In this document: one piece after another, positions 1 to 61,689 of the stretch | Numbering within the stretch: the stretch's first letter is position 1 | Layout: each line of letters opens with the position of its first letter | From: Blasia pusilla | Lineage: Eukaryota | DNA length: 64,000 nt | Reading direction: 5' to 3' | NCBI GenBank assembly: GCA_050084515.1 | Contig: CM114271.1 | Span: 16,492,001-16,556,000, forward strand | The notes under the pieces: model-generated | The model's input: the letters and a program-made list of their open reading frames with translations, nothing else | Databases searched by the model: none | What the model was told of the DNA's origin: nothing | Program-made: the position numbers and the translations under genes

Positions 1-2007
1 CTTGAGGAGACCGATCGGGGCGTCCTTTCGATTGCACGATTGGAGCATGTTGGGGCTTGGAGTGGTGCTCACCAAAGCATGATGATGAGGGTAGAGAGTT
101 TGTGGTGGCTTACGCTAGCCGCTCGAACAACGCCGCAGAGGCGAAATCGGCTTGTATGAGGGTGAGTTTGGTCGGTGTGGGTTGTCGCGCATTTTAGGTG
201 TTACTTATTCGGCAACCCCTTTACCATCATCATCGATCATCAACCACCGAAGTGGTTGATGGAGTCCGACAAGCTTACAGGGAAGCTTGCGAGATGGGCT
301 CTGTTGTTGCAGGAGTATGATTTTTGGTACATAGACCTGGAACGCTCAACCAGGATGTAGATGGGTTGAGTTGTAACCCATGCCCGAGTCAGCGAGATGC
401 GATTGGATCTCGATGGCATGGAGAGAGTGATGAGGAGTCGGTGCCAGGATGGCACGCGTCAGCCTATTTAGGCATGTTGGCTATGGAGAGCCAGAGTGTG
501 GAGACTTTGATGGCGAGGTCTAGTGGAGAGTCTTTGGATCCCGAGGCGGTGAGGACACGACAAGTGGCGAGATATTCATGATGATGGAGTAGTCTTAGAG
601 TACCTTCAGACATCGGCAGCCTTGCAAGCACCATGGATGCTAGAGAGCGGGATCGGATCCTACAGCGGGCCAGACGGTTCCGTTGGGAGGGGACACATGT
701 TTTGAGGGTTTGGGAGGATGGCAGAGTACCGCGAGTGCCGCATCCTTTGCAGAGAGCACGACTAGTGCAACATGCCCACGAGGAGTTGGGTCACTTTGGG
801 GTGAAGCGGACGTATAGCTTGCTCCGGATTCAATATTGGTGGCGAGGCATGCAGGCAGGCGTTCAGCAGCTTTGTTGCCAAGTGCATGGTGTGTGATCGG
901 GTCCGAGCATCGTTCAATGCTCGACTCCACAATTGCATCCATTACCGATCATGGGCTTAGGGTATAGATGGAGTTTGGATTTTGCGGGACCTTTGCCCTT
1001 GACGGAGCGCCACGATCGTTATGTGTTGGTGATGGTGAGCACTTCTCGAAGTGGATCGAGTTGGTTGCATTGCCGACAAAGCAAGTGAGGGAGTAGCTTA
1101 TGCCTTCCTTGACAGAGTCTTTGAGTCATTATGGCGCACCGGTGAGGTGTTGATGACCAGGGTACCGAAGTTTCGCGGTGAGTTCCAGGCCTTGTGTGAC
1201 GGGCGATCGACCATCGCGCGACCGCGAGATCATCCCGAGGCGGATGGATTAGCGGAGAGAGTTGTGCAGACGGTGAAGAGGCGTTTACGCAAGTATGGCT
1301 TGCAGAGAGGTCACCTAGGAGATTGGGACCTCTAGTTGCTATGGTTGGCGATGGGATACAGATTCAGCAGGCAGGCATCCTTAGCGTCTTTTTCACCGTA
1401 CTTGCTACTTTATGGCCGAGAGCCACATTTACCTGCGGCCATTCGTCGAGATGCTGGTGAGATGGTGAACCTTGATGACCCAGATGTATGGGTGCGAGCA
1501 TGTTCTCAGAGGGCTGAGTTATTTCGGAGAGTGATGCTCATGGCGTTCGAGAACTTGGCGATTGCACAGCATCGGGATACGTTGAGGTATGCGACTATTT
1601 GAGGTGGTAGTTATCGACCAACTATCCGGAGGTTTCATCAGGGAGATTATGTCTATTTGCAGCAGACGGCACCGATGATGTTGGATGTGACTGCAGGGCG
1701 CACTATCCTGAGAGTGCGTGACATTTTGCCATCGGGTGTTCTCTTGCTTGAGGGACGCGATGGTATGGTATGGAATGACCATGTGCGTAATTGTGCGCCA
1801 TGTCACCTTCCTAACATTGATGGTACATTAGATCCGAGCTTAGTAGTAGTTCCTGCAGGCTTGCGTTGTATGTTGTGTGGTTCTGCCCGTGGTGCGGCCA
1901 CGATGCTAGTCTGTGATGGCTGTTCGAGAGGATGGCATATGGCATGTTTGACGCCACCTCTCACTAGGGTTCCTCAAGGACGATGGATGTGTCCCAGATG
2001 TACATAG
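1..2007 (+). pseudogene. Frameshifted pol: RNase H - integrase H2C2 - DDE core - C-terminal PHD finger (1867-2004)
   Basis: KLARWALLLQEYDF; HAHEELGHFG...YWWRGM; HPEADGLAER; PYLLLYGREP; CMLC..CDGC..WHMAC..WMCPRC (C4HC3); stop TAG 2005-2007. Confidence 0.92.
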
Positions 2008-2178
2008 AGAAGGTAGTTCTACATTCCGACTTATGTCTATGACATAGATGACAAGGAGGTGACTAACGATGGGGCCACATGAGCACCCGGCCTTCTTGCT
2101 CTTAGCGTCCGAGAGATGTATGTCATGGTAGGTAGGGATAGATGGCTATCTGGAGTTAGAGGGACCTAACCATGAGCT

Positions 2179-2188
2179 AGGGGGGCGA
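2179..2188 (+). other. Polypurine-tract-like motif immediately before repeat B1
   Basis: AGGGGGGCGA; same motif in the same position in copy 3 (59831-59840, minus strand). Confidence 0.65.
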
Positions 2189-2315
2189 TTGGAGATATTT
2201 TGGTTCTTCTTGTCTCGTTATTTGGATGCCATGAGTTAGCATGAGATCATGCGTGTTTGTGTGTGTATTCGGTGACAGCGATGTATGTTGTGTAGCGATG
2301 TGTATGCGCACGACA
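2188..2315 (+). repeat. Terminal repeat B1 (128 bp)
   Basis: ATTGGAGATATTTTGG...GCGCACGACA; differs from B2 by one substitution and a 2-bp indel. Confidence 0.95.
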
Positions 2316-2317
2316 AC

Positions 2318-2829
2318 TGTCACGTCTTTTAGGATAGATCGGTGGGATCGAATAGAGCACCTTCATGAGTAGTGGAGGACACGCCCAGTAGGTCGAGGGT
2401 GACCATTGAGGCCTTGGAAACCTGAGATAACGAGGTTTCCCCTTCGTTCGGCTCATTTGGAGCCATATTGAGGAACTTACTATTTTAGGTAATTACTATT
2501 TTGAATATATGATCGACTTACTATTTTTGGTAAGTGGCCCTTGACCTCCTACATCAGGTCAAGAGCCAAGGAGGTGACTTGGGAGAATAGGTTACCATGG
2601 AGAGAGCTTGGGAGAGGAGAGGGGTATACCTCAAGGAGAGAGAGCTTGAGAGCTCATTCTCTCTTTATTGAACCTCTTGGCATGAGGCGGCGGAGCTATG
2701 GTACCTTGCCTTGTGAGTGTAACCCAAGCCTCTCATTAGGAGAGTGGGTTTGGTTTGACATGAGATAGAGTGCACACCTTTGAGAGCTATGGTGTGAGAT
2801 GGTGGAGAGAGAGATTAGATATTACTTTA
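2318..2829 (+). repeat. Terminal repeat A2 (~510 bp, LTR-like, starts TGTCAC)
   Basis: Colinear with the reverse complement of 10774-11287; contains hairpin CTTGACCT-cctacatc-AGGTCAAG and a TATA-like GGGGTATA. Confidence 0.93.
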
Positions 2830-2954
2830 TTGGAGATATTTTGGTTCTTCTTGTCTCGTTATTTGGATGCCATGAGTTAGCATGGGATCATGCGTGTTTG
2901 TGTGTGTTCGGTGACAGCGATGTATGTTGTGTAGCGATGTGTATGCGCACGACA
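2829..2954 (+). repeat. Terminal repeat B2 (126 bp), 3' terminus ...GACA
   Basis: Near-identical direct repeat of 2188-2315. Confidence 0.95.
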
Positions 2955-4712
2955 CTAACGATTTGGATCAATTGGTCTTGTGTCTCCCAAGTTTGGATCT
3001 CGAATCACCCTTCAAGCTCAATACATCTACACAAGATTAGATATCGACCTAACCACTCACTCCCTAAGATAGGAGAATATTTCAAGACTTGGGATAGACT
3101 TTCTTAATTGATAGTTTGGGGACTTGAAATGGTACTAGTGGGCAGGGAGGTCCCAAATACCCCATGGACCTCCCTGGGGTATTTGGGACCCGAAACCTTC
3201 ATTGAACAAGTCTTTAATGTACTAAAGATCTAGACAAACAAATGAACATAAGTCTTATAAAGGACCAAAAATTTACAAAATGATAACTTGGGGATTTTGG
3301 CCACAAGGGGCAACACAAAATATTACATGGATAAAAGGATGAGGTGAATTTATTTAGAATAAGATGTAAGGGAAAAATCTCCAAGCATATTTGGAACCTG
3401 ACTCTCATATTGGAAACCATGGGAGGATGAACCAAGGCCACATAATGCATTGAGAGGTTTAATTGAGGATTAACACCAAGTCAAGTCTAGATAATCCAAT
3501 TAAGGATTAACCTTAGAGCTTAACTCATATAATGAGTTTTGATTAAAGTTTTGTCTAGATCTTTAGTACATTGAAATTGAATTCTCACAAGCTTTCTAAT
3601 GCAATCTTATTCATCCCAAATGTCTCTTGGATCTTGAAAATATGGTTCAACATAAAGAAATCAAGGATGTTGTTGACTTGACGGGATTTTTGAAACCAAC
3701 CTTATTGAACAACTACATACACATTCTTGCTTCAAGTTTCAGGGAATAGTTTGCCTTCATCCCTCCCCTTGAAAATATTTAAGCATATTTGTGTGGATGA
3801 ACATGCAACGACTTATGGTGGAAATTTTGTTTTTGAGTTGCCTCGACTGATTGGTCTGGCTCAAAAGAAAGATGGAGGATGCTTGATGGTTATGAATTGA
3901 AAATCTCACTATCATCAATGGTGTGCAGACTACAACGGACAAGTGCTTCCAATACCTTCCATCCAAGTCGGTCCTTTTGATTGTATCTCGTCGCCAATGC
4001 GTTGGAGCCCTAGAGTTTAGAAGTCCTAGCTACATTTTGATCTTAAACACGGAAAACCCCTAGACGTTCAATCAAGTTCCAAGCTAGGTTGAAGTCTCCT
4101 CACAGTTTGACTCTTGTGGGACTTGAGCTCTTCTCAAGTTCCATCCAATGTTTGGTCATGCTCTTCTAAGTCAAAACCACTATATAATCTACAAGGCGTC
4201 CATCAAGGCTCGTGTCTTACTTATGTAACTTATGTTTCACCCATGAGACTTTGATGTATTTGCATCCCATTTGAGGTCACTAGAGTTCACATGTTCCACA
4301 TTGGCTTTCTTTTGGTTTTGAGGCTGCAAATTTTTTTAAAAAAAAGGGCTTCTAATTCTTCTAATGCATCAAATTATTTCCAATTATAGGAAGGATAATT
4401 TTTTTTATACTCGAGGAGATAATGATTACGTTCAAGTATTTATATGAAATTTTTTTGGAATAAATATGATTGGGAGAATGGAAAATGGAAAAGGAAAATA
4501 AATGGATTTCAAAGAATTTTTAATGCCTTGAAATTTGAGAGGCTATTGTATGCACATTTAGTTTTATTAGGAAAAAATGAGCTTCTATACGAATTCTTGT
4601 ATCTTGATAAATCCAAAACCTTCTAAAAGAAGGGGATGGGACTTCCACTTGGATAGTAGCCTTCTTTAAATATCTTATAAATTCTATAAATTCATGTCAT
4701 GAGGAATATATT

Positions 4713-7700
4713 CCACCCCGAATAGTCGCATACCTCAATGTATCCTGATGTTGCGCAATCGCCAAGTTCTCGAACGCCATGGGCATCACTCTCCGAAACA
4801 ACTCAGCCCTCTGAGAACATGCTCGCATCCATACATCTGGATCATCAAGGTCCAGCACCTCACCGTCATCTCGACAAATGGCCGCAGGTAAATTTGGCTC
4901 TCGGCCATAAAGTAGCAACTATGGTGAAAAAGACGCTAAAGATGCATGCCTCCTGAATCTGTATCCCATCGCTAACCAGGGAAAATGGAGGTCCCAATCT
5001 CCTAGGTGACCTCTTTGCAAGCCATACTTGCGTAAACCCCTCTTCACGGTCTGCACAACTCTCTCCGCTAATCCATCCGCCTCGGGATGATCTTGCGAAG
5101 TCGTACGATGGTCGATGAGCGCCTGATCACACAAGGCCTGGAACTCACCGCGAAACTCGGTACCTTGGTCTGTCAACACCTCAGCCGGTGCGCCATAATG
5201 ACTCAACATTCTGTCAAGGAAGGCATAAGCTACTCCCTCACTCGCTTTGTCAGGCAATGCAACCAACTCGATCCACTTTGAGAAGTGCTTGATCATCACC
5301 AACATATAACGACTGTGACGCTCCGTGAAAGGCAAAGGTCCTGCAAAATCCAAACTCCATCTATACCTTAAGCCCATGATCGGTAATGGATGCAATTGTG
5401 GAGTCGGAGCATTGAACGATGCTCGGACCCGATCACACACCATGCACTTGGCAACAAACTGCTGAACGTCAGTCTGCATGCCTCGCCACCAATATTGAAT
5501 CTGGAGCAAGCTATACGTCCGCTTCACCCCAAAGTGACCCAACTCCTCATGGGCATGCTGCACTAGTCATGCTCTCTGCAAAGGATGTGGCACTACGCGT
5601 ACTCTGCCATCCTCCCAAACCCTCAAAACATGTGTCCCCTCCCAACGGAACCGTCTGGCCCGCTGTAGGATCCGATCCCGCTCTCTAGCATCCACGGTGC
5701 TTGCAACGCTGCCAATACGAAGGTACTCCAAGACTACTCCATCATCATGAATATCTCGGCTACTTGTCGTGTTCTCACTGGCCTCGGGATCCAAGGACTC
5801 TCCGCTGGATCTCGCCATCGAAGTCTCCACACTCTGGCTCTCCATAGCCAGCATGCCTAAATAGGCTGACGCGTGCCATCCTGGCACCGACTCCTCATCA
5901 CTCTCTCCATGCCATCGAGCTCCAGTCGCATCTCTTTGACTCGGGCATGGGTTACGACTCAACCCATCTGCATCTTGGTTGAGCATCCTAGATCTCTGTA
6001 CTACGTGAAAATCATACTCTTGCAACAACAGAGCCCATCTCGCAAGCTTCCCTGTAAGCTTTTCAGACTCCATCAACCACTTGAGTGGTTGATGATCAGT
6101 GATGATGGTAAAGGGGTGCCGAATAAGTAACACCTGAAATGCGCGATAGCCCACACCGCAGCCAAGCACTCACCCTCATACGAGCTGTACTTTGCCTCTT
6201 TAGCGTTGTTCGAGAGGCTAGCGTAAGCAACCATGAACTCTCTACCCTCATCATCATGCTGGGTGAGCACCGCTCCAAGCCCCAACATGCTCCAATCTAT
6301 GTGCAACTGGAAAGGACGCCCCCTGATCGATCTCCTTAATATGGGCATGGACATCAACCTGTCCTTGAGCAACAGAAATGCTCGCTCCTGCTCATCCCCC
6401 CAGTGCCACTCGTGATCCACCTTGGTCAACAAGGTCAGCGGCTTCGCAATCGAACTGAATCCCTTGACGTATCGCCGATAGAAGTTCGCCAATCCCATGA
6501 ATGCGTGAACACAACTCACATCCGTAGGGCGTGGAATGCGTGAGATAGCCTCTACCTTCACTGCACATGTGAATCGAACGGGTAATGAGCTAAGGCGCCC
6601 ATCACCTGACCGCCATCCTGGTCTATAGGACGCTGAATCCTCCCAGTAATCCAGGGAAAACCCCATCGGGTATAACACTGCTCCACCAACCAAGACGTCG
6701 TAGGACTCTACATCAGTCACTATCACCTTGGCGCGCACCACGGACTCATCTGTAGGATGTCTTGGGCGAATCCTCACCACGACCTCTTGTCGGGTGATAT
6801 ACTGTGTGGTACTCGCTCCACCCAAGGATGTCTGTATCTGGAATGGACAACGATCCACATCGGCTCTCGTCAAGCCCAATCCTTTGAATGACGCTTTCCC
6901 CAACATCAAGGGTTGCACTCCTGAATCCAACAAGACGCGTTGCGGACTAAAAGCTCTACCTATAGGACTCACCAAGTGGAAGACCTATCCTTGGTTATCC
7001 AACAACACAACACGAGGAGAAGCCATGGCACGCTCTATTGCAGGTCTAGCGGGCATCTCCGCCATCCTAGCAGCCGCAGCCTGCCATGAATCTGACGTGG
7101 ACTGTCCGAGCATCTGCTCCAAGGGCAGGTCCATCACCTCCTATGCAATCACCTCTGAACGTGATGCAAGAACTCCAACTCCGCGCTCACATAGCAAAGC
7201 GGCCAGCCAAAAAGCCTCGGCGGGTGTACCCCCCAACGTCATAACATCGGAAGCAGAAAATAAAGGAGTGCGGTACACAACGGTGGCCGCCCTCAACAAC
7301 GTGCTCGACACATGCCCCTCCTGAGCATCAAAAATAAGAGTCATCGTACTCGCTTCTCCCATCACCCTTCGTGCCTGCACACCAACAACATCACCAACTC
7401 TCCAGGAACTTTGATGAGGACCCATCGATGGGGTCCTCATCGCTTCAGACAACGTGAAAGACTGAGGAAGCCTAGTCTGTTTTCTGGCTTCCCCTTGTTG
7501 TGGATCCAACTCTGCGGCTACTCCACGCGTCACAAGTGCGGCGGCCTCCATTTGGGCAACCCCGCACATCCAACTAGGATCCTCCTGATCTCTGGCTGCT
7601 CCATATAATGTCGATGCCACGGATCCGGCATCGGGTAACCTCAATGCCAAAGTGGAAATCTGCTCATGTAGCTACTGTATCTGAGTAGCCATCCCAGCCT

Positions 7701-9193
7701 CACGTCCGGCGTCTCCCTCGGCGCGTCTAGGTGGTGGTACTCTACCTCTTCCACGGGCAGCTCCACCACCCTGTCGGGCAACTCCAGCTCCTCGTCCCCC
7801 AACGGGACCACCTGGTGCACGATCTCTAGGCCCACCTCGTCCCTAAATGGGACCACCTGGTGCACGATCTCTAGGCCCACCCGTACCGGCTACTCGCTCT
7901 GGTGACCTCTCTAGCCCTCGGTCCGGACGTAACTCAAGATGTAAAGTGAAACACCTGGCGCGTGTATGACCATACCTATGACAATAGTCACACTGATAAC
8001 CTCCTGGTGCATCACCATCTCCTCCTCCAGTTGAGGCACACGTCCATGACCCTGACGAGTGCAATGGCACTGATGATGGGCTCCACCACATGACCAACAA
8101 GTAATAGTAGGCGACTGCTGTTGAGCCGCATATGAAGGCGTAGGTCTCTGTGCCACGGGCTCCCGATATCCTCCCTGAGCTTGTGGTGCCACAATTGACC
8201 TATCTCGGAGTCCACGTTGCTGCACAGGTGGTGTAGCCAATCGCGACTGCTCTCGCCTAGAACCATGGTGGCTACGCTCTCCTCCGCCATATTGCGCTCA
8301 ATGTTCTCGGCGGTCCTAAAAATATCCCTCAACATAGGGGAGGTGTTCATAAGAAGCACCCCTCTTGCACCCGTGGCCGCAGGGTCTGGTCCAACATCGC
8401 GTACCATGACTGGATAGCCTAAGCCTCTATCACCCCCTGAGTGACGTTGATAAACCGGTGCAAGCAAGTGTAAGCCTCATGTAAACTCTCACCCGGGCGC
8501 CTCTGAAAGTTGTGGATGCTCCGCAACTTTTCCGTCCGTACCCCGTAGTAGCTCGCCCTCAACTCAGCAAAGAACTCAATGACGGGATTGAACCTGGGAC
8601 GAACCCGACTAGACGGTGTAACTGCTCCAGTGCGAGTGACCCCTCCTAAAACATCACTATTGGAAGAGGAAGTAGCCTCTCCTGAATCCTCCTCCTCATC
8701 TGGGAATGGCTCCGTCCATGACACATAGTGGGGGTTGTAGTAGAGTCGCCATGCCTCAATCTCCTGGGCATATCTGTGGGAGACCTCATGGTAATTGTCT
8801 ATGGGTGCCCCCTCTAAATACTGGAAATATACCATTCCATGCTGTAAATGGGTTGAACTCTCTAGAGTTCCTGGCCCGCTGGGAGTCGCACCAACTCCTA
8901 AACTTTGCTATGAAATCATGCAACTCAATCGTACCTACTGCACCTGAAAACCTACGCGGTCCTCTACCCCGGTCGTCCATCTCGTACGCCCAATCGGTAG
9001 GACCATTCACAATGTGTGGCGACATGCTCTCAAACTCCTCTACACCCTCCCCCTTGTCTGACGATGATACAAAAGGAGGTCGAGTTGGTCCCTGAAGTGA
9101 AGACCCTCGGAACCTCACGCCACTACGCGTAAAACCTCTAGAGCTACTCTCGGGTTCACCACCTTGCCTCTCAAAGTCCCGAATGGACGCCAT
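4713..9193 (-). pseudogene. Degenerate gag-pol (gag, 2 Zn knuckles, aspartic protease, RT thumb/RNase H, integrase)
   Basis: FQRRPGESLHEAY (gag); CWSCGGAHHQCHC and CDYCHRYGHTRARC; RVLLDSG; FMGLANFYRRYVKGFS; WSLDFAGP, TDQGTEF, ADGLAER; several frameshifts and stops. Confidence 0.9.
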
Positions 9194-10773
9194 GATGACC
9201 CTCGTGCCCTTCTCACCCGATCACTCTTGCCTCGCGAGTAATCCCTCAATCACTCATCCCAAACATGCGGCACTCGATCTACACTCTCCCTCCGCGAGAC
9301 ATGTAACGTGCGGCAATAAGCGGCGTGGTGGGGCAAATCGACCACGCTATCATTTCATCGATAACCTACCCTCAACTCCGGACATCCCACACAGGTCTAT
9401 GTCCCCTAAACCACATACATAAATGATGCTCTCAACATCCACACACCCAGTATCCCCAAATAAACTAACCAAATCCCAGAATCCCTCACACGTGCAGGGT
9501 AAAGGACCAGAATGGGTAACCTGAACACATGTCAATGTCGCTCCTCAGCAAATGCAAATCTCGACCCCAACTCGGTCATGGAGAAACTCCTCCAATCAGC
9601 AAGTCATACTCCTCCCGTACTGACGTTGCTCAAAACTCCTCGATAGACGGTGCGGTTCCAACGGAACGGTACGGCGTTGCAGGCGGCACGGAACGGCTAC
9701 GAACGGCACCGCCCTCGATGATGGATGCGGCACTCGGCGCCATACCCTCCTCAATCAACAATAAACCCACACTTTGCTCCATAATGCCGGAGCGGCTCCG
9801 CGATCAACACGGTGCGGTGTGGCCACGAGCGGCACGACGCGGCAATCGGCGACGCGTTGCGGCTACGGGCGTCACGGCACGGTACCCGATCGTCGTTGAG
9901 CGGCTACCAATCACAACATAGCAGCATGAAATCAAAACTTAAACACTATAACAAGAGGTCATATGCCATCACATGTTGATGACAGTGGCGGCCAAAACAA
10001 AATACGTGATGGCGACGCAAGTCTGAGAATCAACGAACGTTGTGGAAGACCCTCCACTCCGTAACGGCGAAAATGGCAACCAAGGGTGGACAACGGACGG
10101 TGGACCATTGACGGTGATGGTTGACCATTGATGGTGACGGCCGAACGGTGATGGTGATGGCGATTTTGATGGTTGACGATGACTATGATTGATCATGTGG
10201 CGGCTGGTTTAGGTTTTGCACAATTTAACCCTAAAAATCGCCTAGCAATGGCAGTTTTCAAGATTGATCATAACTTTTTGCTCGCAACTCCAAATTGCGC
10301 ATTGTTTGTTGCACAGCGTGCACAACTTCACAATCTACGCCAACATCCAGAAAAATTGGAAATTCCAGTAAAAACTGACGGGGATTGTCGTAAAGCCCAA
10401 TGTCTCTTTCTCCTACACAAAATTCGGCAGCACTTCCGCGCTGATTTCTCCCAACAAAAATGTAAAACCTATAAAAATGCAAATCAGCAAGCGACATGAA
10501 GCTCCCAAAAGCACCGGAATGGGGCAACCCGCCCCCATACTCAATCCCTATCAGAAATTGGGCAGCGCTTCCGCGCGCCACTCTTCCACATGAAAAATCG
10601 GCAAATGCAAAGAACAATCCAAGCAACCCTTGCTCCGCTGAGCACTCCCATGAGCCGTTGAACGGAGAACACGGTCCCCAACCTGCAAAAACAGTGAATG
10701 ACCAGCGAGCTCCCCCATGAAGCTCTCTCACTCTCTCATTCTCTCATTCTCGCATTCTCGCATTCTCTCTTTG

Positions 10774-11287
10774 TAAAGTAAGATCCAATCTCTCTCTACA
10801 CAATCTCACACCATAGCTCTCAAAGGTGTGCACTCTCTCTCATGTCAAACCAAACCCACTCTCCTAATGAGAGGCTTGGGTTACACTCACAAGGCAAGGG
10901 ACCATAGCTCCATTGCCTCATGCCAAGAGGTTCAACAAAGAGAGAATGAGCTCTCAAGCTCTCTCTCCTTGGGATATATACCCCTCCCCTCTCCCAAGCT
11001 CTCTCCATGGTAACCTATTCTCCCAAGTCACCTCCTTGGCTCTTGACCTGATTAGGAGGTCAAGGGCCATTTACCAAAAATATAAAGCCGATCATATATT
11101 CAAAATGGTATTTACCTAAAATAGTAAATTCCTCAATGTGGCTCCAAATGAGCCAAAACGAAGGGGAAGCCCGCACTCTCAGGTTTCGGGCCTCAGCAGG
11201 TCATCCTCGACCTCCTAGGCCTGTCCTCCACTACTCTTGAAGACGCTCTACTAGATCTCACCAATCTATCCTAATAGATCGGTGACA
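10774..11287 (-). repeat. Terminal repeat A1 at the 5' end of copy 2 (not followed by B or by a TGG-type PBS)
   Basis: Reverse complement aligns with 2318-2829; on the element strand it is followed by CAAAGAGAGAATGCGAGAATGCGAG... Confidence 0.92.
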
Positions 11288-13637
11288 AAGGAGATATCTT
11301 ATAGGGCAATAAGTCAATATTTTTATGGATAACTTGACTATTAACTTTGTGTGTAACACAAGCTCTACAGTAATTTGAAATTAACATGACATCCTCTTCA
11401 AATAAGCTTATTAGGGAACTCGAAAAGCACAAGATGATCATAAACTAGGTAGGATTATTAGAGATAATAGTGAGAGCTATAAACAACATAAGACAAAATT
11501 TGAGGTGTGTTGATGTTCATGGAGAGTCTTGGTGGAGGTTGCAACAACTAGGCAAAGTCCCAATGATAGTTTCTACAATGATGGTGGATGAAATATTTCA
11601 TCCATTCAAACACTTACTATTCAAACATTTATTTGTTTTGCGAACTACAAGGGCTTAGTAGTTTTTATGATTTGTAGAGTCCAACCTCTACTTCTCCTTG
11701 CTTCACCTTGAAGCACTCTCGACCTTGAACTTTGCAAGCGGAGGACTTAGGTTAAGCCCCAAAGACTCAACTGGTTGCACGTTTTGTAGGTAGCTCACAA
11801 AGTGTCAAATACTAATATAATGAATCGAGTCTCTTCAAGTATGTATTGCCTTTTCTGGAAGCCTCTTTCCTAAAATTTGATCAATCTCTCCAAATCACTT
11901 GCCTATATTGGAGCGCGTTCATTAATTTCTCAAGGTGCATCCTCTAGCTCAAACTTGAGACACCACCAAACGCACATAAGAATTAATTTACCGTTCAAGG
12001 ACTTGAGCAAGCAGGGAGGGAGAGTGTCCCCCTCCCTCCCCTATATGTACTTTTCTAGGGTTCTCTATGGAAATCATACCTTCCCCAATGCCCACATCTA
12101 GCCCTTGATTTTAGCCCTAAACCCAAATGTAGTTTGCGACCCACGAACCCACATTTGACTAGTTATCCAATGGTTTGGCGGAAGCTTCTTGCATATTCTG
12201 CAACTCTCGGATCCCCAAATGTATCTTGGAGATTGGATCCATATTTTATATGTCTCTAGTGTCCATCTCGACTCCCCGTTTGGTGTCTCATAGTCTCATA
12301 CTTGCCGTTCATTGCGTTTAGTGATTAGTCTCGTGGTGTCTCGCCCATCTTGACTACTCACATGTTCCTTGCTCCTCGCCTTGATTTGACGCTTGGCTTA
12401 AAGATCTCAAACCTTCCTTGCCCTGCCTTTTTCCTTGTGAGTAGCTATACCCCTTTCTCACCTAAGGCTAGTCACAAGACGCGTGCACATCTCGCCTAAC
12501 GTTAGTCTTGTGGTCGGTTTCGCCGCTCTAACTAGTCTAGCGACTAGTTAGTCTACATTTTGACTTTGGTGCGTCGCACCAAGGTCTTTTCCTCCTTGGA
12601 CCTGCGATCATGACTCGCTTTTTGGGTCTCCGCTAGCGTGGGGGCCATAGACTCAGTTATTTGTGACGCACCATATCTTATAATTTATATTGTTAAAGAA
12701 ATGTAACTTTTTAATTTTCAAAGAAATACCTCTATTCCCTACACATGGGAGTAGTGCCACATCAAGAAAAGATTTTTATAACACACGCATAAAGATTTTA
12801 AGAAAATAAGAATTTTGGACAACATTATTATCGGCCCATTGCATACCATGAGATGTGTATCTTTGTCAATCCTTTGAACAAAGGAAAGCTTCTTCACTTC
12901 CAAAAGCATCTTTATTTGCCATATGGAAACGGCCTACAAAGAATATTTCCACATCACGGACAATAAGAAAACATTTTTCCAAACAACATGCTCACTTCGT
13001 GCCATGGACGAAGTCCACATAAGTTAATTACTAATTATGATTATCCTCCGCATGACACAAGCCCGGGTTTTGATAAGTCTACACCCTACCATCACCCATT
13101 AGGAAAGTTTGCATGGTGCCCCGGCCTTTGAGAAAAAACAAATCTATCTTGTCGAATATTGTGGCTCTTAAAAATGTGCGCAGGATAAAAAGAAGTATAT
13201 TTTTCCAAAGTCGATTTTCCGAATAATTTATTTTTTTATTGAAAAAACGCGAGTCTGAGAATTTTTTCCCCGGCGTCAGCCAAGTCAATGGCATCGATCC
13301 CCGGCTACCGGTCGTCCGTGAATATATACCGACCGGAGTGTATTTGTTTTTGGAAAATGTTTTATATAATAAAAATATAAAAATAGCGTTGGATGGCGAT
13401 AAATGGACGGCGTTACGTGCGCCGGTGGAGTCTATCTCCACCTGGCGAACATTCTTCCGTGAACCCTCACGATTATAACGACTTTGACTAGAGAGAGAAG
13501 AGCGGTGAATACTGTATATACCAGTAAAAGAAGTGTTTTCCCGTGTGTTTTTAATCAAATAAGTTTAAAAACAGTTTTGTCTCAATAGAGGATATTTTAT
13601 TTAATTAAAAATGCGGAGGTGGAAGAAAAGGATCATA

Positions 13638-15292
13638 ATTGCCTCTCTTCGGTTTCTTACGAGGATTGGTGACCCTCAAGTCGCCTTCGGCATTCTCTCT
13701 TCTTGTTTTGCTCGTAGACCTGGTTACCTCACTAGAACTGTCTGGACATCTAGTCACCTTTCTTCCTATATAGATCCTTTGATAGGAAGCTCATGCAGGT
13801 GTTTGGGGATCTTCTAGGACCCGGCTCCTTAGAGTGCCCCATGGGGGAGTTAGCTCGTAGACAGGCCTCTTGGCCAATTTCTTTTGGTGGAGTAGGTCTT
13901 CTCTCGACCGAGTTAGTGGCGCCCTCCGCTTTTTTAGGGAGTTGGGCCATAGTGGCACCCCTCCTTTGCTCCCGATTTTTGGTTAGAGATAGACCGCTCC
14001 TTCTACACTACGTCTCCCAAATCGAGGATGGCTCTTTCCCACCGGTCTTCACTCACGGCTTGTAGAGATTCCTTCGAGTTGAGGCCGAGCCGTTCTCCCC
14101 ACTTTCTCCTCCTTAGTTACCTCCGGTCGCCTCGGGGCTCCAATCTTCCTTGATGGAAGCCCACTTTGAGGCAGTTTTTAGAGGCACTATGTCCGACGGG
14201 AATATCCCCATGGAGGTTAGGGCCCGATTCGCTCTTGCTCCGAAAGGGGTAGGCTCATGGGTAGGGGCGCGCCCCCTTCTCCAGGCTTTCCGTATCGCAC
14301 CACTTACCTATACCACAGCGATGCGGTTCCGCTTGGGCCTCCCCCAACCATCGGTGGTTGGTTCGACACACTGCGAGTGTCGCCGGAGCCTGGATCCACT
14401 TGGTGTGCATTTGGCACGCTGTCGATTGGGCTTGGGGTGAGGATAGCCACTCACGATGCAGTGCGGGATATCATGTTCAGTATTGCTCGGGAGAGTGGCT
14501 TCCATGTGCAGAGAGAGAGGCACTACTCCATGCGGGATTCCCTCATTCGTGCCGATCTCTACATGACACGTGAGGCTGAGGTGGTTGTGGCGGACGTGGT
14601 AGTCACAGATCCTACGCGGGAGGCAGTGCGAGCCCAAGTGGTGGCCCAAGGGCGAATGCTACAAGGAGCGGCGGCGGCGAAGAAGACACATATCTCTGAT
14701 CGACTACACGAGGGACACATCTTCATCCCCCCGCCATAGAGATGTATGGGGCTATGGGGGAGAGGTTCGACTTCGTTCTTACGGATCGCGCCCATCATCT
14801 CCACTCGAGAAATGGGTTGTCCTTAGCTCTCTGCGATTCTCAGATTGTAGGCAGCGGGTCTCCATAGCGTTGCAGCGTGCCCAGGCTAATGGGATTTTTG
14901 CGGCGGGCTCAGCGTGGGAGACGCGGCGCTAGAGGCCCACTTAGTAGTAGTCATAGCTCTCTTGTTGTTGCTGATATTGTCTCTGCTGTTGGTGAGTTTC
15001 GTCGTTAGGGGGGGGAATGCCCCCTTCTTCCTTTTCTGGTCCTGTTGTGGCCTTCAGGTTTTGACTCTTTGAGTCCCCCTCTTTTGTACTTCCGATGGGT
15101 TTTCCATCACTCGTTTTTATCGAAGTGCATCTTTGTTTATTGTTTCTTCCTTCCTCCCTCCCTCCCTAAGGGTAGGACTCGGGAGAGTGTGGCTCATGCA
15201 ATGCCCGTGCATCTCTCATCGGCTACAGCACCGCCGGTGAGCGGACCGTCCAATTACCGAGCGCCAATAAAGCCGATAATAATAATAATAAT
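13638..15292 (+). mobile_element. 5'-truncated non-LTR retrotransposon with restriction-like endonuclease (CRE-like), degenerate
   Basis: QASWPISFGGVGL..APSAFLGSW; RFRLGLP..CEC..H..C Zn finger; HDAVRD..E..RAD..D RLE motif; IALQRAQA; possible (AAT)n tail at ~15277-15292; boundaries approximate. Confidence 0.75.
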
Positions 15293-15830
15293 CAGGTGAC
15301 GTGAACTCACTTACCGGTGTGTGGAGCAATGATTATTAATCTCGGGCGAGCAATTAATTAGCTGGCGAAGATTGCTCTCTGCTTATGTACCGCCGTTAAC
15401 CCGAGCGCAGTGAGCGACGGTACTGCAGTTAGCTCCGCCTCGTTAAGAAAGAAAGAAAGAAAGAAGTGATCTAATCCGCCACGCGACGGCAGTCGGCCTC
15501 GCCTTCTTATCTGAGCAGCCAAGGGGCCGGTTTCGCCTCCTCTCGCTCGGTGCGGTCGGAAACCGCATCTCATTCCTTTCGTTGCTTTCCTTCCTGCGAC
15601 TGATAATATTCTTCGACGTCCTCGAGTCTAAGGCATTCTATTCCATTCCATTCCCTTATCAAAGTGCCCGCCCAACGATATTTTTCGCGCTGGGCATTGG
15701 AGGGTCGCTCGAATTGAGAAGGGCCGGGACTGCGCGGGGCGGTGTCCAATTGTAGCCGCTTGCTTGGCTTGGGGTCGTGCAGCGGTGTGGAGCGAGCGAA
15801 GCGGTGGGAGGAATTCGGAAGTGCGAGAAA

Positions 15831-16275
15831 ATGAGGAAGGAGGATACCGTGAAGCTGATCAGTGCGGAGGGTTTCGAATTTGTCATCGACCGCAAGGCCG
15901 CGCTCGTCTCCAATACCCTCAAAAACATGCTCACGTCTTCAGGTATTAGCCGCCGGGTTCCGAAGCCTGGATTTGTGTCCGTGTTATTTTCTGCTGCCGT
16001 TGATGCGGTGGGTGCTGGAGGGTTGCCGGTGTCAATTCCTTTGATCACCTTGCTGCTCTCGGAACTGCTGGCAAGCAGTCTCGGAGAGCTTTTCTCCGTG
16101 CAGTTCTGCCCTTGAGCGTTTCATGAGATCTTGGAGTTTGTCGACTTTACCAGCTGGGAGGTTTTCTTTCCTGTGGGTCGGATGCTTTCTCTTTCTTTCT
16201 CTCTCTCTGTTTGTGCCTCGCGGACAGCAAGGCACTCCATTCTCTCTCCCGATGTCTGTTGCGACTCCCCGTGGA

Positions 16276-16318
<43 letters not shown>

Positions 16319-17552
16319 ATGCCTTACGCGACAAGAAAACCCCAACTAGGTTCGGGTGCCGTAAGTGGCGCATGTAGCGGGTGAGAAGGGTGAAAAACTT
16401 TACAAAGTGGAGGTTTGGCAGGCGGTGATTGGGCAAGCAGATGACCTGCCCTCATTGCCTGGCTGCGTTTCAACTGCTGAGAAGAGAGAGAGAGAGGGAG
16501 AGGGAGAGAGAGAGTTCCTGATCCGTCCGTACTCGAGATTCGTTGTCTGGGTCGGCTTATGTGTTGTCGTCTATGAAAACGATTAGAGCAGTACCCGGCA
16601 ATCGAAGCTCCATAGACGAATTTCTTTCGTCAATTCAGCGAGATTACCTCTCGTGCACGTTCGCGTAATTCTGGTGGCTCATGGTCCTTTCGATCCCGTG
16701 GACTTTTCAATTCTCATTGATTCATAGATGCGGCAGTTTGCATCATGCGGGAGGACGTGGGGCTTGGCGTGTGGGTTGGCTATCGTCGTGCCGGCCATGG
16801 TCCGGTAGATCTCGTCGTCACCAGCATCTTGTCTTCTGACTCAAGACGCTCGACCGCTCTTATCAAGACGTCAGTAGTGGCGTCTTGATAAGAGCGGACT
16901 TCGAACTAGGGTCGGTTGTACATGCGCGAAAGAAATAGTGTTGCATCTTTTGTCTCCTGAAATGCAGCAACTGTTGGTTGTGAGGTTGAAGTTCCCCCCG
17001 TCTTCGTTTGGCAGGAAGCTTTACTGAGACGGAGTTGGGTGAAGTGAGGTTTCCGGAGATCAGCACACCCATTCTTGAAAAGGTTTGCCAGTATTTCTAC
17101 TGGTCTCTGCAGTTCGCCAGGTTTTTTACTCTTAACCTAGAAGTCCTCATTGTAATCGCTTGGACATTCCCTCTTTTTATTAACAGTCGTATATTGGAAG
17201 GGAGAACTTGCGAGCGCTTGATTTTGGCTGTTTTCTCGGAGTCGGGAGGGAGGGACGTTCAAAACCTTTGATACAATTCTTGTTGCTTCTAGATACGGGT
17301 ATCGACGGACTTAGATGGAGCCATTCAGCTGTTTGCTATCTATGCGCGTTGCACTCAATGTGGTCTTTTCAGAATTTTAATTTTCATGGATTGTAGCTTC
17401 TGAATCTGGTCGTCGTTACCATCATCACGGGCCTGAATGACGAGGGCGGAAAATGGCTGGAACTGTGTTGCAGTGGTAAGGAGACAGAGTTCCATATAGA
17501 ACCGGAAATCACCCTCGAGCTCATGATGGCAGCGAACTACTTGCATACTTAA
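15831..17552 (+). CDS. ELC1: Elongin C, 98 aa; exons 15831-15942, 17015-17120, 17474-17552
   Basis: GT-AG introns in matching phases give MRKEDTVKLISAEGFEFVID...LEKVCQYFYW...LELMMAANYLHT*. Confidence 0.96.
16278..16313. repeat. (TC)n microsatellite in Elongin C intron 1
   Basis: Direct reading. Confidence 0.95.
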
Positions 17553-33800: not shown

Positions 33801-34415
33801 CCTTTTTCTCATGGCTACCTTGCCTTGTTGCTGCCTCTTTGCTTGCGACTGCCTTGCCTTGCTACAGTCTTGCCTCACTCATAGTCGCCTTGCTCCCGGC
33901 TGCTCTATCCAACCTTGGTTGGCGCCCCGCTCTTGGCTATTCGACCCTTCCTTGCTTTCCTAATGCTCGAGGTTGTGGGACCCGCCGTGATAACGTTTGG
34001 GCATGTATGTCGAGCTACAGCCGGCGGCGGCTTGACCTGGGCTTGGTTGTTTTGGACTCTTGTTGTGCTTTTGGGTTTTGGTCTGGGTCACTTCCCTTTG
34101 GCATCACCTTGCTCCACTCTGCCTTTGAATTTTGCCTTCTGAGACAGCCGTGAGCTCTGGATCTCGCTACGGATCTTGGCCTCTTGCTTCACTTGCATCT
34201 GGCATCCTTAGACAATTGTGAGCTCTAGATCTCGCTCTGGATCTCGCTTAAGATCTTGCTCCATATTTTGGCCTCTTTCTTCTCCGAGGCCTTCGTCTTG
34301 CCATGGTTGCATTATTGCTTGCTCAGATGGCGCTAGCCCGCTGCTGCTCGCCTTGGACGTTGTGCTCGTGTTGTTGCGTGAAATCGCACTCACCATTTGC
34401 ACCTCCTGTTGCTTG

Positions 34416-34564
34416 TATTTGAGCATTTGCTCACTTGGTGTAGTAGCCCCGCGGCTTTTTTCTCTTCTCTTCACTTGATGCAAGAGTCCGTATTTGAGCA
34501 TTTGCTCACTTGGTGTAGTAGCCCCACGGCTTTTTTCTCTTCTCTTCACTCGATGCAAGAGTCC
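34416..34564. repeat. Tandem duplication, ~74 bp x2
   Basis: GTATTTGAGCATTTGCTCACTTGGTGTAGTAGCCCC...GATGCAAGAGTCC repeated. Confidence 0.85.
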
Positions 34565-46095: not shown

Positions 46096-46898
46096 TAAAA
46101 TTTTTGAGATCCATAATCGGATCTCTAATTTTTAAAATGCTCATATTTTTATGGATTTTAAACATTAGAGATCCGATTATGGATCTCAAAATTCCATGAT
46201 TTCTCTAATTTTAAAAATTTTATGGATTTTATGGATTTTAAAAATTAGAGATCCGATTCTGAAATTTTATGAATTTTATGAAACCCTAAAAATGCCTCCA
46301 TAAAATTTCAGAATCGGATCTCTAAAATAACATCAAACCATGAGCATGAAGAAAAGTTGGTGCAAAAAAATTAATTCCTTTATTACAAATCATTTGCAAA
46401 TTGGCTATTTTCATTTCATTTCCTGAACAAGAAATTCTAGTCTATGATCGCTTCAGCCTCGTCATCTATAAAAATATTCCTAACTCTTGCCGGTTCCTCT
46501 AAAAGGCACTTCTCTTGGCTATTAAGTGGCTCCTCTACACGATTGTAGATGGGAAAAGACAAAGAAGGAGAATCTTAGAGCCTTTTCCTCCTTGGAACCC
46601 CATATTGGTCCCATGTGACCCGAGAAAAGTCCCAACGCCTCCCCCAAAAGGTGATTTTGAAGGCTCTACAAAGGGACACCCATCCATAATTGATATATGC
46701 TTCTGTGCTTCAACTAGTACATTCCAACCCCAAAACGCTTGAAATCCAAGGCACCTACACTCACTCGTCATCATCCGAGAGCTCCTCTAGAATCATCGGT
46801 GGCCTTGCTATCCTGATTTTTGGGATCACTGGTAGTGACGATGGCGTCACAACCAATGGCTATGCTGTAGGTTCATTAACCCGTGGAGGCGACTCTTG

Positions 46899-55419: not shown

Positions 55420-56100
55420 AGATCCGGGGTTACGAGTAACCCCGGCCGGCAAATTTCAGGAAAATCCGACGCCGGAAGAAGTCGACCGGCACCAGTTCCG
55501 GGCGGTAATGAATAGCTGCCGGAAGTTGACAGGGCAGTCCTGCAGGCGCCGGAATGTGACTGCCTGAATGTCGGAACATGCCGGAATGTGGCGACGTCCG
55601 GGCAGGAAAGCCGGTTTTCGGCTGGATAACATTTACCGGCGGACGGTTTATTGCCGTTTGGGGTTCCGGCTGCCGGAAATGCGGGAGTGGCTTAGATTTG
55701 CTTAGGGGGAGGCGGCTCGATCCAGACCGTCCCCTCAAATGTGTGCCCTAACACCCACTTAGGGCACACTAATTTGAGCCGTCCGATCTAAATCGAACGG
55801 CTTCAGTTAGGGTCGCCCATCTGCCAAGGGGCTCGCAGGGGGGTGGAGACTCGACTACGGGCCCTGAACCCCCTCATTCTGCTCTGCCTCACTCCGCAGC
55901 CTGCGCTCCGCAGCCTCCGCAGCTCCGCTTTGCTCCTTTTCGCTTTTCGGCTTTGCTCCTCTCCGCAGCTCGGCAGCCTCGGCTTTTCTGCGCTCGGATC
56001 CGCAGCCTCCGCAACTCGGCGAGTCGGCTTTGCTCCTTTTCGGTTTTCGGCTTTGCTCCTCTCCGCAGCTTGGCGAGTCCGCTTTGCTCCTTTTCGGTCA
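55420..56100 (+). repeat. GC-rich segment resembling the 5' region of the hAT-like element, with short tandem repeats (CTCCGCAGC / CTTTGCTCCTTTTCG) at 55880-56095
   Basis: AGATCCGGGGTTACGAG resembles AGATCCGGGGTCGCGAG at 48619; similar CCGG-rich then C-rich layout. Confidence 0.45.
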
Positions 56101-61654: not shown

Positions 61655-61689
61655 AACCTCCCCCCATTTAAGACACAACGTCCTCGTTG

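Follow-up and report, generated by a model that had tools for sequence, protein, structure and literature searches.

The repeats that bound a Ty3/Gypsy-type retrotransposon of Blasia pusilla are split, reading A-body-B-NN-A-B (NN, two nucleotides) where two identical LTRs would be expected. The layout is real, extends across a lineage of related elements and has already been noted once in a green alga; the replication mechanism that we set out for it is a proposal only. A preliminary description of this DNA had suggested a Gypsy lineage with non-canonical ends that had not been described before. The DDE integrase and the lineage-wide A...B-NN-A-B arrangement uphold the first part of that suggestion, whereas the second falls to a remark in a figure legend (PMC5890265). 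Taken as a whole, and weighted towards the parts observed directly, the explanation developed here is the one towards which we lean.

Anatomy of the three copies

The window, by which we mean the whole 64-kb stretch of DNA analysed, holds three copies of the element. All are decayed and incomplete, as the preliminary description had cautioned: the window start truncates copy 1; copy 2, cut at about 4706, is missing some 2.4 kb from protease to RT connection, where intact relatives have the methylase and RT core; and copy 3 is broken at 61301 by a nested Gypsy element. The window family is very abundant, with DNA contig depths in the thousands. The features of the three copies are as follows.

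1 to 2007, plus strand: decayed 3′ part of copy 1 pol, with RNase H, integrase zinc finger, rve core and C-terminal region (ORFs, Pfam)
1867 to 2001, plus strand: PHD finger at the integrase C-terminus (PF00628, E 6.5e-12, residues 89-133 of ORF 1603-2004)
2005 to 2007, plus strand: stop codon of copy 1 pol (ORF listing)
2179 to 2187, plus strand: G-run aggggggcg directly before B1, taken as the polypurine tract (PPT; sequence)
2188 to 2315, plus strand: B1, 128 nt, ending ..CGACA (repeat search, BLAST)
2316 to 2317, plus strand: 2-nt spacer AC between GACA and TGTC (sequence)
2318 to 2828, plus strand: A2, 511 nt, starting TGTCAC (repeat search, BLAST)
2829 to 2954, plus strand: B2, 126 nt, ending ..CGACA, the 3′ terminus of copy 1 (repeat search, BLAST)
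4706 to 10760, minus strand: body of copy 2, with leader, gag, protease, RT connection/RNase H and integrase (ORFs, Pfam)
10761 to 10774, minus strand: predicted self-priming primer-binding site (PBS) ACAAAGAGAGAATG, starting at the last base of A1 (complement search)
10775 to 11287, minus strand: A1 of copy 2, its 5′ terminus, with TGTCAC at 11287 (BLAST, flank comparison)
10935 to 10948, minus strand: predicted transcript start CATTCTCTCTTTGT, 32 nt downstream of the TATA box (sequence only)
10974 to 10980, minus strand: TATATAT box inside A1 (sequence context)
59704 to 59831, minus strand: B of copy 3 (BLAST), followed by the unrelated flank TCCTT
59832 to 59840, minus strand: G-run of copy 3, directly before B (sequence)
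59841 to 61301, minus strand: copy 3, 3′ part of pol with PHD finger (repeat search)

Direct reading, a repeat search and BLAST within the window agree that copy 1 ends in the order pol-PHD, G-run, B1, AC, A2 and B2, as first described, so that GACA-AC-TGTC forms a palindrome-like junction, and that B2 is followed by the unrelated flank CTAAC. Within A2 lie the motif CATTCTCTCTTT (2655-2666) and a TATA region that has decayed. Searching A and B separately by BLAST, a check that the preliminary description had proposed for the genome and related species, gave two matches to A in the 64 kb (A2 and A1 of copy 2, 90% identity) and three to B. B1 and B2 are 97.7% identical, with one substitution and one 2-bp indel between them, and the B of copy 3 is more diverged at 89%, which bears out the contrast that had been drawn between the pair and the third repeat. 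The remaining ends were also read correctly from the start: A1 of copy 2 stands alone at the 5′ end, preceded by unrelated flank without B, and copy 3 ends in the G-run and B. By BLAST, the 474 leader nucleotides that follow A in copy 2 match nothing else within the window, so B is absent from them. We rejected a repeat longer than B, since the borders of B1 and B2 are sharp and the 250 nt upstream of each resembled one another no more than shuffled sequences did in all seven elements tested.

The pol of copy 1 matches those of copies 2 and 3 in inverted orientation at 92-94% identity, and its Pfam assignments were made from the homologous copy-2 pieces together with ORF 1603-2004. Window ORFs contain RNase H (RT_RNaseH), an Integrase_H2C2 zinc finger, an rve (DDE) core and, at the C-terminus in place of a chromodomain, a PHD finger. 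No tyrosine recombinase was hit by Pfam in eight window ORF pieces or in the three ORFs of L004, a near-intact relative. Both the window pieces and L004 have the Ty3/Gypsy Pol order with a DDE integrase and an H2C2 zinc finger, and two identical terminal LTRs are absent: the 5′ end is A alone and the 3′ end is B or B-NN-A-B.

Recurrence of the layout and its lineage

Relatives were drawn from metagenome contigs as 76 loci with the PHD-bearing C-terminus and sorted into independent insertions by pairwise BLAST; the PHD C-terminus query found no match in viral contigs, and a DNA pattern from A found none in viral or metagenome contigs. Ten independent 3′ ends read B-NN-A (window copy 1, L002, L029, L007/8/19/21, L009/10, L023, L056/60, L004, L039/41 and L026/27) and 12 of the 22 read B directly followed by flank. 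Where the end of A is visible in a B-NN-A end, B2 follows A2 in every case (7/7) with unrelated flank directly after ..ACA, and none stops at A (0/7). A conserved G-run and B precede the junction ..GACA-NN-TGT(C/T)A.. in several families that are diverged and come from three or more sources. The G-run, TAGGGG(G/A)GC/TAGGGGGG, lies directly before B in copy 3, L002, L007, L008, L019, L023 and others, and the spacer is 2 nt in every related junction (AC, GT, GC, AT or TT). Two 5′ ends are readable, those of window copy 2 and L025, and both pass from flank into TGTCAC.. without B. In run X2, four DNA contigs connect the A start (2318/2323) with sequence from elsewhere in the family. The elements terminate at TGTC/TGTT, where A starts, and at GACA, where B ends, as the preliminary description had supposed: flanks outside both are unrelated, in the window and in related loci. 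We are confident that the layout belongs to the lineage and is no local accident.

The 5′ regions of the loci contain no full-length B; all hits follow the G-run or the A end, and the sole B matches elsewhere are 54-57-nt inverted fragments of the B end in five brine-family loci. No 5′/3′ repeat pair was found in L010, L020, L022 or L058, a sensitive 5′-versus-3′ comparison of L010, L020, L022, L034, L045, L056 and L058 gave nothing useful, and A2 queries from eight loci matched only positions after B1. The contigs of L004, L010, L048 and L051 all start within the T-rich leader, so their 5′ repeats are lost, and because contigs break there no related locus has both A1 and A2 of one element. 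An old copy, L056, has B-NN-A-B at its 3′ end and nothing A-like upstream of the leader, and among old L007-type elements the repeat nearest to a given B1 is not always its own B2. A 785-nt pair in L014/L028, considered as A1/A2, proved to be another small repeat inside duplicated host segments. The 5′ region of L034 also matches the 3′ region of L031/32 in inverted orientation, which we read as a probable nested insertion and not as terminal inverted repeats.

Could the replicating unit be a plain A...B without LTRs, in which B-NN-A-B arises from a tandem with an internally deleted copy or from insertion or recombination of a solo A-B? The 12 of 22 ends in which B meets flank would suit such a unit, as would the occurrence of solo-like TGTCACGG..CCGTGACA units as separate insertions. 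One of these, 631 bp long, lies within B of L022 between (G/A)TTAT repeats, which fit an integrase-type 5-bp target duplication at TGTC/GACA-type ends; a duplication of this kind was seen only for this solo-like unit. Against a plain A...B stands the exact joining of A end to B start and the 2-nt spacer in 10 insertions of at least five diverged families. Moreover, the bases flanking A2-B2 form no target duplications in the window, L002, L029, L007 or L010, for which reason we rejected A2-B2 as a solo unit inserted beside B1. The spacer is inherited and not made anew, since AC is found both in copy 1 and in 65 RNA reads that pass through GACAACTGTCA to 2322, into diverged A. An A...B unit would also be unable to complete first-strand transfer from the PBS because it has no 3′ copy of the transcript start. 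We therefore consider this origin improbable.

The near-intact Pol of L004 reads, by Pfam, Asp_protease_2 (PR), DNA_methylase (PF00145, E 5.4e-12), RVT_1, RNase H (RT_RNaseH), H2C2, rve and PHD. The methylase region recurs by tblastn in nine groups of loci (L006, L010, L017/18, L020/22/24, L048/49/51, L055, L056, L057/58 and L060), and its best solved relatives are DNMT3A/3B/3C, at E of about 1e-8. It is absent from all three window copies, of which copies 1 and 3 begin downstream of its position and copy 2 is deleted there, so the placement of the window family in a DNMT3 lineage depends on its integrase C-terminus, which is 57-78% identical to that of methylase-bearing loci. The only named homologues are from Haematococcus and Volvox. 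On balance, we take the element to be best explained as a decayed member of a streptophyte/green-algal Gypsy lineage with PR, DNMT3-like methylase, RT, RNase H, DDE integrase and PHD finger.

The nearest published counterpart is KnitGypsy-Dnmt3 of Klebsormidium nitens, to which a figure legend ascribes DIRS-like repeats (PMC5890265, de Mendoza et al. 2018); the legend of Fig. 1e in the same paper gives the DIRS layout (SymbioDIRS) as A-coding region-B-A-B. KnitGypsy-Dnmt3 resembles L004 and other relatives in having a Gypsy-type Pol with an internal DNMT3-like C5 methylase, and shares A-coding region-B-A-B with them and the window element; the link is made by domain set and layout, not by sequence alignment or a tree. 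It differs in that the window copies are without the methylase region and that their relatives carry a PHD finger, a term with no occurrence in the main text of PMC5890265; that text likewise gives no priming sites, termini or mechanism for the algal element. Within the literature searched, elements of the Gypsy-DNMT3 kind are mentioned only there and in one preprint, which again names Gypsy-DNMT3 of streptophytes (bioRxiv 10.64898/2026.05.21.726589); supplements or figures may hold coordinates for the K. nitens repeats.

Transcription and priming sites

Raw RNA reads (X21) cover the whole element on the sense strand. The joint between B end and A start is spanned by 32 reads from 20 starts, which together with the 65 reads described above demonstrates that the internal B-NN-A junction is transcribed in the sense direction. 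RNA depth over the leader is 13-39, and no joint of B end to leader is among the best-supported RNA joints listed, which rank above 169 further joints.

These reads bear on the alternative that the preliminary description had itself put forward as fatal to its reading, namely a canonical LTR of A+B at both ends, with B1 a one-off duplication and copy 2 a deletion product. A2-B2 does form one unbroken unit from TGTC to GACA, as a normal LTR would, but G-run-B-NN-A is seen again in RNA reads and in 10 independent insertions that span several families and sources, the joint of B to leader that such an LTR calls for is missing from the best-supported joints at that leader depth, the PBS adjoins A and not B, and L025, like copy 2, starts with A alone, making two of two readable 5′ ends without B. 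The canonical arrangement is largely refuted.

In copy 2, a stretch of 14 nt that opens with the final base of A1 complements 10935-10948, the predicted transcript start, without a mismatch, and we infer that it forms a PBS for self-priming of the Tf1 type. A complementary 14-mer arose in none of 20000 shufflings of A1, and only two inverted pairs of at least 11 nt occur in 2.4 kb, both on the PBS site. The complement is CT/GA-rich, and in the minimum-free-energy fold of the predicted 5′ RNA the first 20 nt pair with an internal GA-rich stretch and not with the PBS. The complement is seen in one decayed copy, because the PBS region of L025 is deleted, and the 5′ regions of L004, L010, L022, L034, L048 and L056 gave no convincing self-priming signature. 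A PBS of the tRNA-iMet type, sought with its 12-nt motif, was rejected, since the motif matched in no element copy; its sole match in the window (two mismatches, 47405) lies outside the elements, and 4.9 such matches would be expected by chance. Judged from motifs and complementarity, the putative priming sites are canonical in kind (a G-run PPT and a self-priming PBS), and what is unusual is the position of the integration ends.

The same sites argue against an ordinary element whose LTR is B (TG..CA, 90-210 nt), with A as its 5′ leader and B1-A2-B2 as a miniature derivative or a tandem that shares an LTR. The TG(G)...ACA borders of B and the G-run before it would be expected of a 3′ LTR. Yet it is in or beside A that the TATA box, the transcript-start motif and the PBS are all found, both readable 5′ ends and the four contig joints start A at flank with no B0 before it, and the 5′ regions of the loci are without a full-length B. 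We regard an LTR of this kind as very improbable.

Proposed replication cycle

The G-run before B and the PBS after A, the latter known from one copy, flank the unit B-NN-A and not the integrated ends, and the A2|B2 junction corresponds to the base to U5 end|U3 start. Because the PBS adjoins the A end and the G-run adjoins the B start, B-NN-A is probably the LTR as reverse transcription defines it, with self-priming. Transcription would start inside A at a site of the 10935-10948 type, 32 nt after the TATA box; the 5′ end of the RNA would prime the minus strand on the adjoining PBS, as in Tf1, and the plus strand, primed by the G-run, would start with the first base of B. Ordinary cDNA with B-NN-A as its LTR would result, in which U3 would comprise B, NN and the first 339 nt of A, and R-U5 the remainder of A. 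The integrase ends (..CA / TG..) would then sit back to back inside the LTR, two bases apart, as at a circle junction.

Self-priming has been defined and predicted for Tcn1 elements of mosses (PMC6317226, PMC2864245). The likeness of the present element to the Tf1/Sushi-Tcn1 group lies in a predicted PBS directly after the repeat that would complement the element's own transcript start, and in hosts that include mosses; those elements differ in having a chromodomain and ordinary pairs of identical LTRs that themselves end in TG..CA, where the Blasia element and its relatives have a PHD finger and, as we propose, integration ends inside the RT-defined LTR. The window analysis yields a predicted complement of 14 nt. 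In Tf1 the self-priming complement is 11 nt.

We speculate that the cDNA ends become joined, in a 2-LTR circle or by an end-to-end jump, which would create a junction of A end and B start, and that opening at the GACA-NN-TGTC of the 5′ LTR would then give exactly A-body-B-NN-A-B. We put forward integration from such end-joined, junction-bearing cDNA tentatively, at somewhat less than an even chance. A-body-B-NN-A-B would be the replicating master, because it is the sole integrated form with promoter, PBS, PPT and 3′ U3-R. Copies of the A..B type, such as copy 3, would be dead ends, left by recombination between B1 and B2 or by cutting at the same sites in linear or 1-LTR molecules. A circle would also predict the mirror form A-B-NN-A-body-B, which was not found among loci whose 5′ ends are mostly lost. 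In its strictest form, the proposal would hold that only end-joined cDNA resembling a 2-LTR circle, cut at GACA-NN-TGTC, yields a replication-competent insertion and that the LTR is circularly permuted, which we think possible but on the doubtful side.

Retroviral integrases cleave the palindromic LTR-LTR junctions of 2-LTR circles (PMC1905944, PMC1180852), where a ..CA-spacer-TG.. palindrome likewise serves as substrate and is opened to two processed ends. In retroviruses, however, end-joining has to come first for the junction to exist, and its cleavage is a side path, whereas here the junction, with its 2-nt spacer, would be encoded in every LTR and its opening would be the normal route.

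Split direct repeats were defined for PAT-like, Ngaro and DIRS-type elements (PMC4157794), which share with ours the order A1-body-B1-A2-B2 and an internal B1-A2 that equals the joined termini, have incomplete transcripts that need this internal copy and in some cases carry a methylase (PMC4157794, PMC7192593). They differ in their tyrosine recombinase and Dam-like adenine methylase, whereas the present lineage has a DDE integrase (H2C2 + rve), TG..CA ends and a related solo unit with a 5-bp target duplication. A rival route follows what has been proposed for them: linear cDNA ending in TGTC/GACA would be built directly by extra template switches guided by B1-NN-A2, and the integrase would insert this ordinary linear molecule with no end-joining. 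The identical layout, whose internal copy of the joined termini is proposed to make incomplete transcripts whole again (PMC4157794, PMC7192593), the mostly linear and single-stranded state of DIRS-1 cDNA (PMC7192593) and the transcription of B1-NN-A2 all speak for it. With a PBS at the A1 end and a G-run before B1, however, ordinary transfers would give B-NN-A at both ends; a search of the sequence found no primer-like site after B and no purine tract before A, and there is no homology to force a jump from B start to A end. We consider extra template switching unlikely, though the most plausible of the alternatives weighed here.

Earlier knowledge of the layout, as far as the sources consulted extend, amounts to a single remark in a figure legend (PMC5890265). 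New here are the termini, the 2-nt junction, the priming sites (with a predicted PBS) and the two integrated forms, which together turn a layout into a testable model of replication. The clade has likely been missed or mis-bounded in bryophyte and algal genomes, because LTR finders and surveys seek identical terminal repeats. That one Pol unites a PHD reader with a DNMT3-like methylase is relevant to the way these elements handle host chromatin. If the integrase acts on the internal junction, the lineage would offer a natural model of what is otherwise known only from retroviruses, as a side path, and would link DIRS-like and Gypsy architectures. Integration from a circle junction is an old model, discarded for retroviruses. 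Should the proposed cycle prove true, it would be the normal route of a widespread Gypsy clade of the green lineage, and split direct repeats would be a general footprint of the integration of junction-bearing cDNA, whether by a DDE integrase or by a tyrosine recombinase.

Split direct repeats in the window copies

The preliminary description had read the 3′ end of copy 1 as pol, a PPT (the G-run below), B1, AC, A2 and B2, and direct reading, a repeat finder and BLAST all agree on this order.

Features of the Gypsy copies in the window
1867-2001, plus: PHD finger at the integrase end, copy 1
2005-2007, plus: pol stop, copy 1 (direct reading)
2179-2187, plus: G-run aggggggcg (direct reading, repeat finder, BLAST within the window)
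2188-2315, plus: B1, directly after the G-run
between B1 and A2, plus: two-base spacer AC (direct reading)
2318-2828, plus: A2, beginning TGTC (direct reading, repeat finder, BLAST)
2829-2954, plus: B2, with GACA at its end and unrelated sequence beyond (direct reading, repeat finder, BLAST)
11287-10775, minus: A1, 5′ terminus of copy 2, 90% to A2, the only recurrence of A in the window
59831-59704, minus: B of copy 3, 89%, the only B in the window besides B1 and B2, G-run before, unrelated flank after
60040-60170, minus: PHD finger at the integrase end, copy 3
61302-64000, minus: nested Gypsy element with a chromodomain-like C-terminus, same orientation as copy 3
61657-61302, minus: LTR of this nested element, TGTAAC...GTTACA

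Some 170 nt are untranslated between the pol stop of copy 1 and its G-run. B1 and B2 are near-identical, as described: a single substitution and a 2-bp indel separate them. The repeats have sharp borders, and in 7 of 7 elements compared the 250-nt stretches preceding B1 and B2 resembled each other no more than shuffled sequence does. Copy 2 does open with A alone, between unrelated flank and a leader that found no other BLAST match in the window and hence no B, and copy 3 ends in G-run and B, with unrelated flank after 59704. Each of the three copies is decayed and lacks part of the element: the window start truncates copy 1, copy 2 passes from protease straight into the RT connection and ends at about 4706, and the nested chromodomain-bearing element breaks copy 3 at 61301.

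The pentamer TCCTT stands on the minus strand both before A1 of copy 2 (11288-11292) and after B of copy 3 (59699-59703); the two copies overlap in pol, lie 48 kb apart and are not ordered as parts of a single element would be, and the shared flank may reflect coincidence (about 1 in 1000), a preferred target or rearrangement long ago. Other repeats in the window are a 75-nt tandem pair (34415-34564), an 80-nt AT-rich pair (46122-46261), a CTCCGC-rich cluster (55892-56074) and a direct pair at 77-81% (50542-50805 versus 59406-59662), one member of which abuts the copy 3 flank.

Protein domains and lineage

Pfam found RNase H, the integrase H2C2 finger, the rve core and a C-terminal PHD finger in the window, so the enzyme is a DDE integrase, as first proposed. 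Chromoviruses carry a chromodomain at the integrase C-terminus, whereas this element has the PHD finger there. A near-intact relative from a metagenome contig, L004, has three long frames, and its Pol comprises aspartic protease, C5 DNA methylase (PF00145, E 5.4e-12), RVT_1, RNase H, H2C2, rve and PHD; Pfam detected no tyrosine recombinase in L004. The DNMT3-like methylase region (L004:2477-4660) lies between protease and RT, displays the motifs IFGGIGTG, GWPCQGHS and IFENVP, and has DNMT3A, 3B and 3C as its nearest solved relatives. It occurs in nine locus groups, among them L006, L010, L017/18, L020/22/24 and L048/49/51, and likewise L055, L056, L057/58 and L060. A protein search returned 386 proteins at E <= 1e-20; among the 120 listed, nine combine methylase, integrase and PHD in one chain (eight also with RT), and a tenth has methylase, RT and integrase without PHD. 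Named proteins among the matches listed come from Haematococcus and Volvox.

The lineage belongs to the kind represented by KnitGypsy-Dnmt3 of Klebsormidium nitens (de Mendoza et al. 2018, PMC5890265), whose legends refer to DIRS-type repeats with Gypsy-type domains (Fig. 4c) and define the DIRS arrangement as A-coding region-B-A-B (Fig. 1e). A 2026 preprint (10.64898/2026.05.21.726589) mentions "streptophytes (Gypsy-DNMT3)". The legends give the architecture a precedent in print; the preliminary description therefore holds for the architecture and its generality but not for its being undescribed. In running text, we found no account of its termini, priming sites or mechanism. Because the methylase region is missing from all three window copies, their membership rests on integrase-PHD similarity and the common layout. 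We file the element under the Gypsy-DNMT3 kind with split direct repeats.

Recurrence in the species and in related loci

One RNA read set and three sets of DNA contigs, all bearing the window's species label, were mapped to 1600-11700 with a likeness threshold of 85%. The family is highly abundant, with a summed contig depth of 5,000-25,000 in sequencing run X1 versus 0-200 in unique DNA between the copies, and it is transcribed in the sense direction along the whole element. The B end (2954) is joined to the A start (11274, opposite strand) in 32 RNA reads with 20 starts, and 65 RNA reads pass ..GACAACTGTCA to 2322 before entering a diverged A, indicating that B-AC-A is a family feature within the transcript. 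Four contigs from run X2 connect other parts of the family directly to the opening base of A (2318, or 2323); these joints are nested insertions that mark the A start as a real 5′ terminus. A joint from B end to leader is absent among the 15 joints listed (169 more exist), with RNA covering the leader, which is weak evidence. Differences between window copies and family contigs are dominated by C>T and G>A (in X1, for example, 237 and 240 out of about 1050 places), as expected of methylated-cytosine deamination.

A DNA pattern from A matched nothing in viral or metagenome contigs, and the 134-residue PHD-bearing C-terminus as query found 76 metagenome loci at 33-78% identity. At least three kinds of metagenome contributed these families, brine samples among them (L025-27, L030, L033, L038-44, L053, L068). 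Anatomy was determined by self-comparison, BLAST of A and B pieces, junction reading and a motif scan, and loci with common flanks were counted as one insertion. After the PHD stop, the common layout is a conserved G-run, a B of 90-210 nt ending ..(G/A)ACA, two bases (NN) and TGT(C/T)A. The spacer, which is AC, GT, GC, AT or TT, looks inherited, as both copies of one family (L002, L029) have spacers a single transition apart. Ten independent 3′ ends read B-NN-A, which together with the RNA reads makes the architecture general rather than local, and 12 read B then flank. Where its end is visible, A2 runs directly into B2 and then unrelated flank (7/7) and never ends the element (0/7).

Independent 3′ ends
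B-NN-A, A2 end visible (7): window copy 1; L002; L029; L007/8/19/21; L009/10; L023; L056/60
B-NN-A, other three: L004; L039/41; L026/27
B then flank (12): window copy 3; L001; L011; L012/13/17/18; L040/52/54/55; L014-16/28/45-47; L020/22/24/57/58; L033; L053; L068; L042-44; L030
Left out, equivocal ends: L006, L061, L074/75
Left out, <400 nt past the stop: L003, L005, L025, L034-38
Left out, weakest PHD-only matches: L067, L069-72
Left out, families without recognisable B: L031/32, L048-51, L059, L062-66, L073, L076

The L011 flank opens CA+TGTCATG, apparently a remnant of A. Besides that of copy 2, one more 5′ end is readable, in L025; it passes from flank to TGTCAC without B, and its A is 81% identical to A2 of L041 over 500 nt. 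The two ends of an element were never found in the same locus, probably because contigs break in the T-rich leader. Contigs of four families open in its (TTTTTG)n (L004:1-68, L010:1-40, L048:40-117, L051:7-90); window copy 2 has just a short T-run there (about 10685).

Two further arrangements were seen among the loci. Sequence upstream of gag in L034 (1-1522) matches L032:7833-9374, downstream of the PHD stop, in inverted orientation (86% over 1.5 kb; weaker in L048-51, L056 and L060); we read it as insertion into an older inverted copy, the alternative being true inverted terminal repeats. Inside B of L022 lies a 631-bp unit (10667-11297) that contains tandem repeats and is bounded by an 8-bp inverted repeat (TGTCACGG/CCGTGACA), also present in L020, L024, L057 and L058 and partially in L028:867-1319. 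This unit resembles a solo A-B-type insertion from a related family, and the (G/A)TTAT duplications around it in L022 are the sole target duplication seen.

Predicted priming sites and a proposed permuted LTR

In copy 2, 14 nt from the last base of A1 (10774-10761) perfectly complement A1 340-353 (10948-10935), the predicted transcript start, which follows a TATATAT box by 32 nt. The 14-mer was absent from all 20,000 shuffles of A1, and the only two inverted pairs of at least 11 nt in 2.4 kb of 5′ region both fall at this site. The arrangement is that defined in print as self-priming (PMC2864245), which has been predicted for moss Tcn1 elements (PMC6317226). Counting against such a PBS, it is known from one decayed copy, its complement is CT/GA-rich, and the minimum-energy fold of the predicted leader lacks the duplex, the 5′ end pairing instead with an internal GA-rich stretch. 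Just past the predicted PBS, GAGAATG occurs four times (10700-10773, minus strand), which creates, 29 nt further on, a second 11-nt complement to the predicted transcript start. The G-run before B is conserved between families whose surrounding sequence is not.

Given the predicted PBS and the G-run, reverse transcription should yield ordinary double-stranded cDNA, whose LTR would be B-NN-A, starting at the first base of B and finishing at the last of A. The genomic A2/B2 join would then be a join of U5 end and U3 start, exact to the base, and the integration ends TGTC and GACA would lie inside the LTR, next to each other with two bases between them. A 2-LTR circle would read body-PPT-B-NN-A-B-NN-A-PBS-body and, opened at the second junction, would give A-PBS-body-PPT-B-NN-A-B, the observed form. 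Cuts after each CA of a junction with this 2-nt spacer would produce 5′ overhangs of 2 nt and recessed CA-3′ ends, as processed retroviral ends have. Integrase cleavage of palindromic LTR-LTR junctions has been reported (PMC1905944 and PMC1180852).

A route by template switching, as has been proposed for DIRS elements, is a serious rival to circle opening. Against the model, no circle was observed, the mirror form expected from a circle was not found but may exist, and L056 reads B-NN-A-B with nothing A-like upstream of its leader. On the circle model, the A...B form would derive from a linear or 1-LTR molecule cut at the TGTC/GACA sites, or from B1 x B2 recombination; having no 3′ copy of R, it cannot replicate, which on this reading fits a form that is common yet a dead end. 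What is new here is the exact termini, the 2-nt junction, the two integrated forms with their frequencies, the spread over several families and sources, and the PHD finger, together with a predicted self-priming PBS and a permuted-LTR model in which the integration ends would lie inside the LTR.
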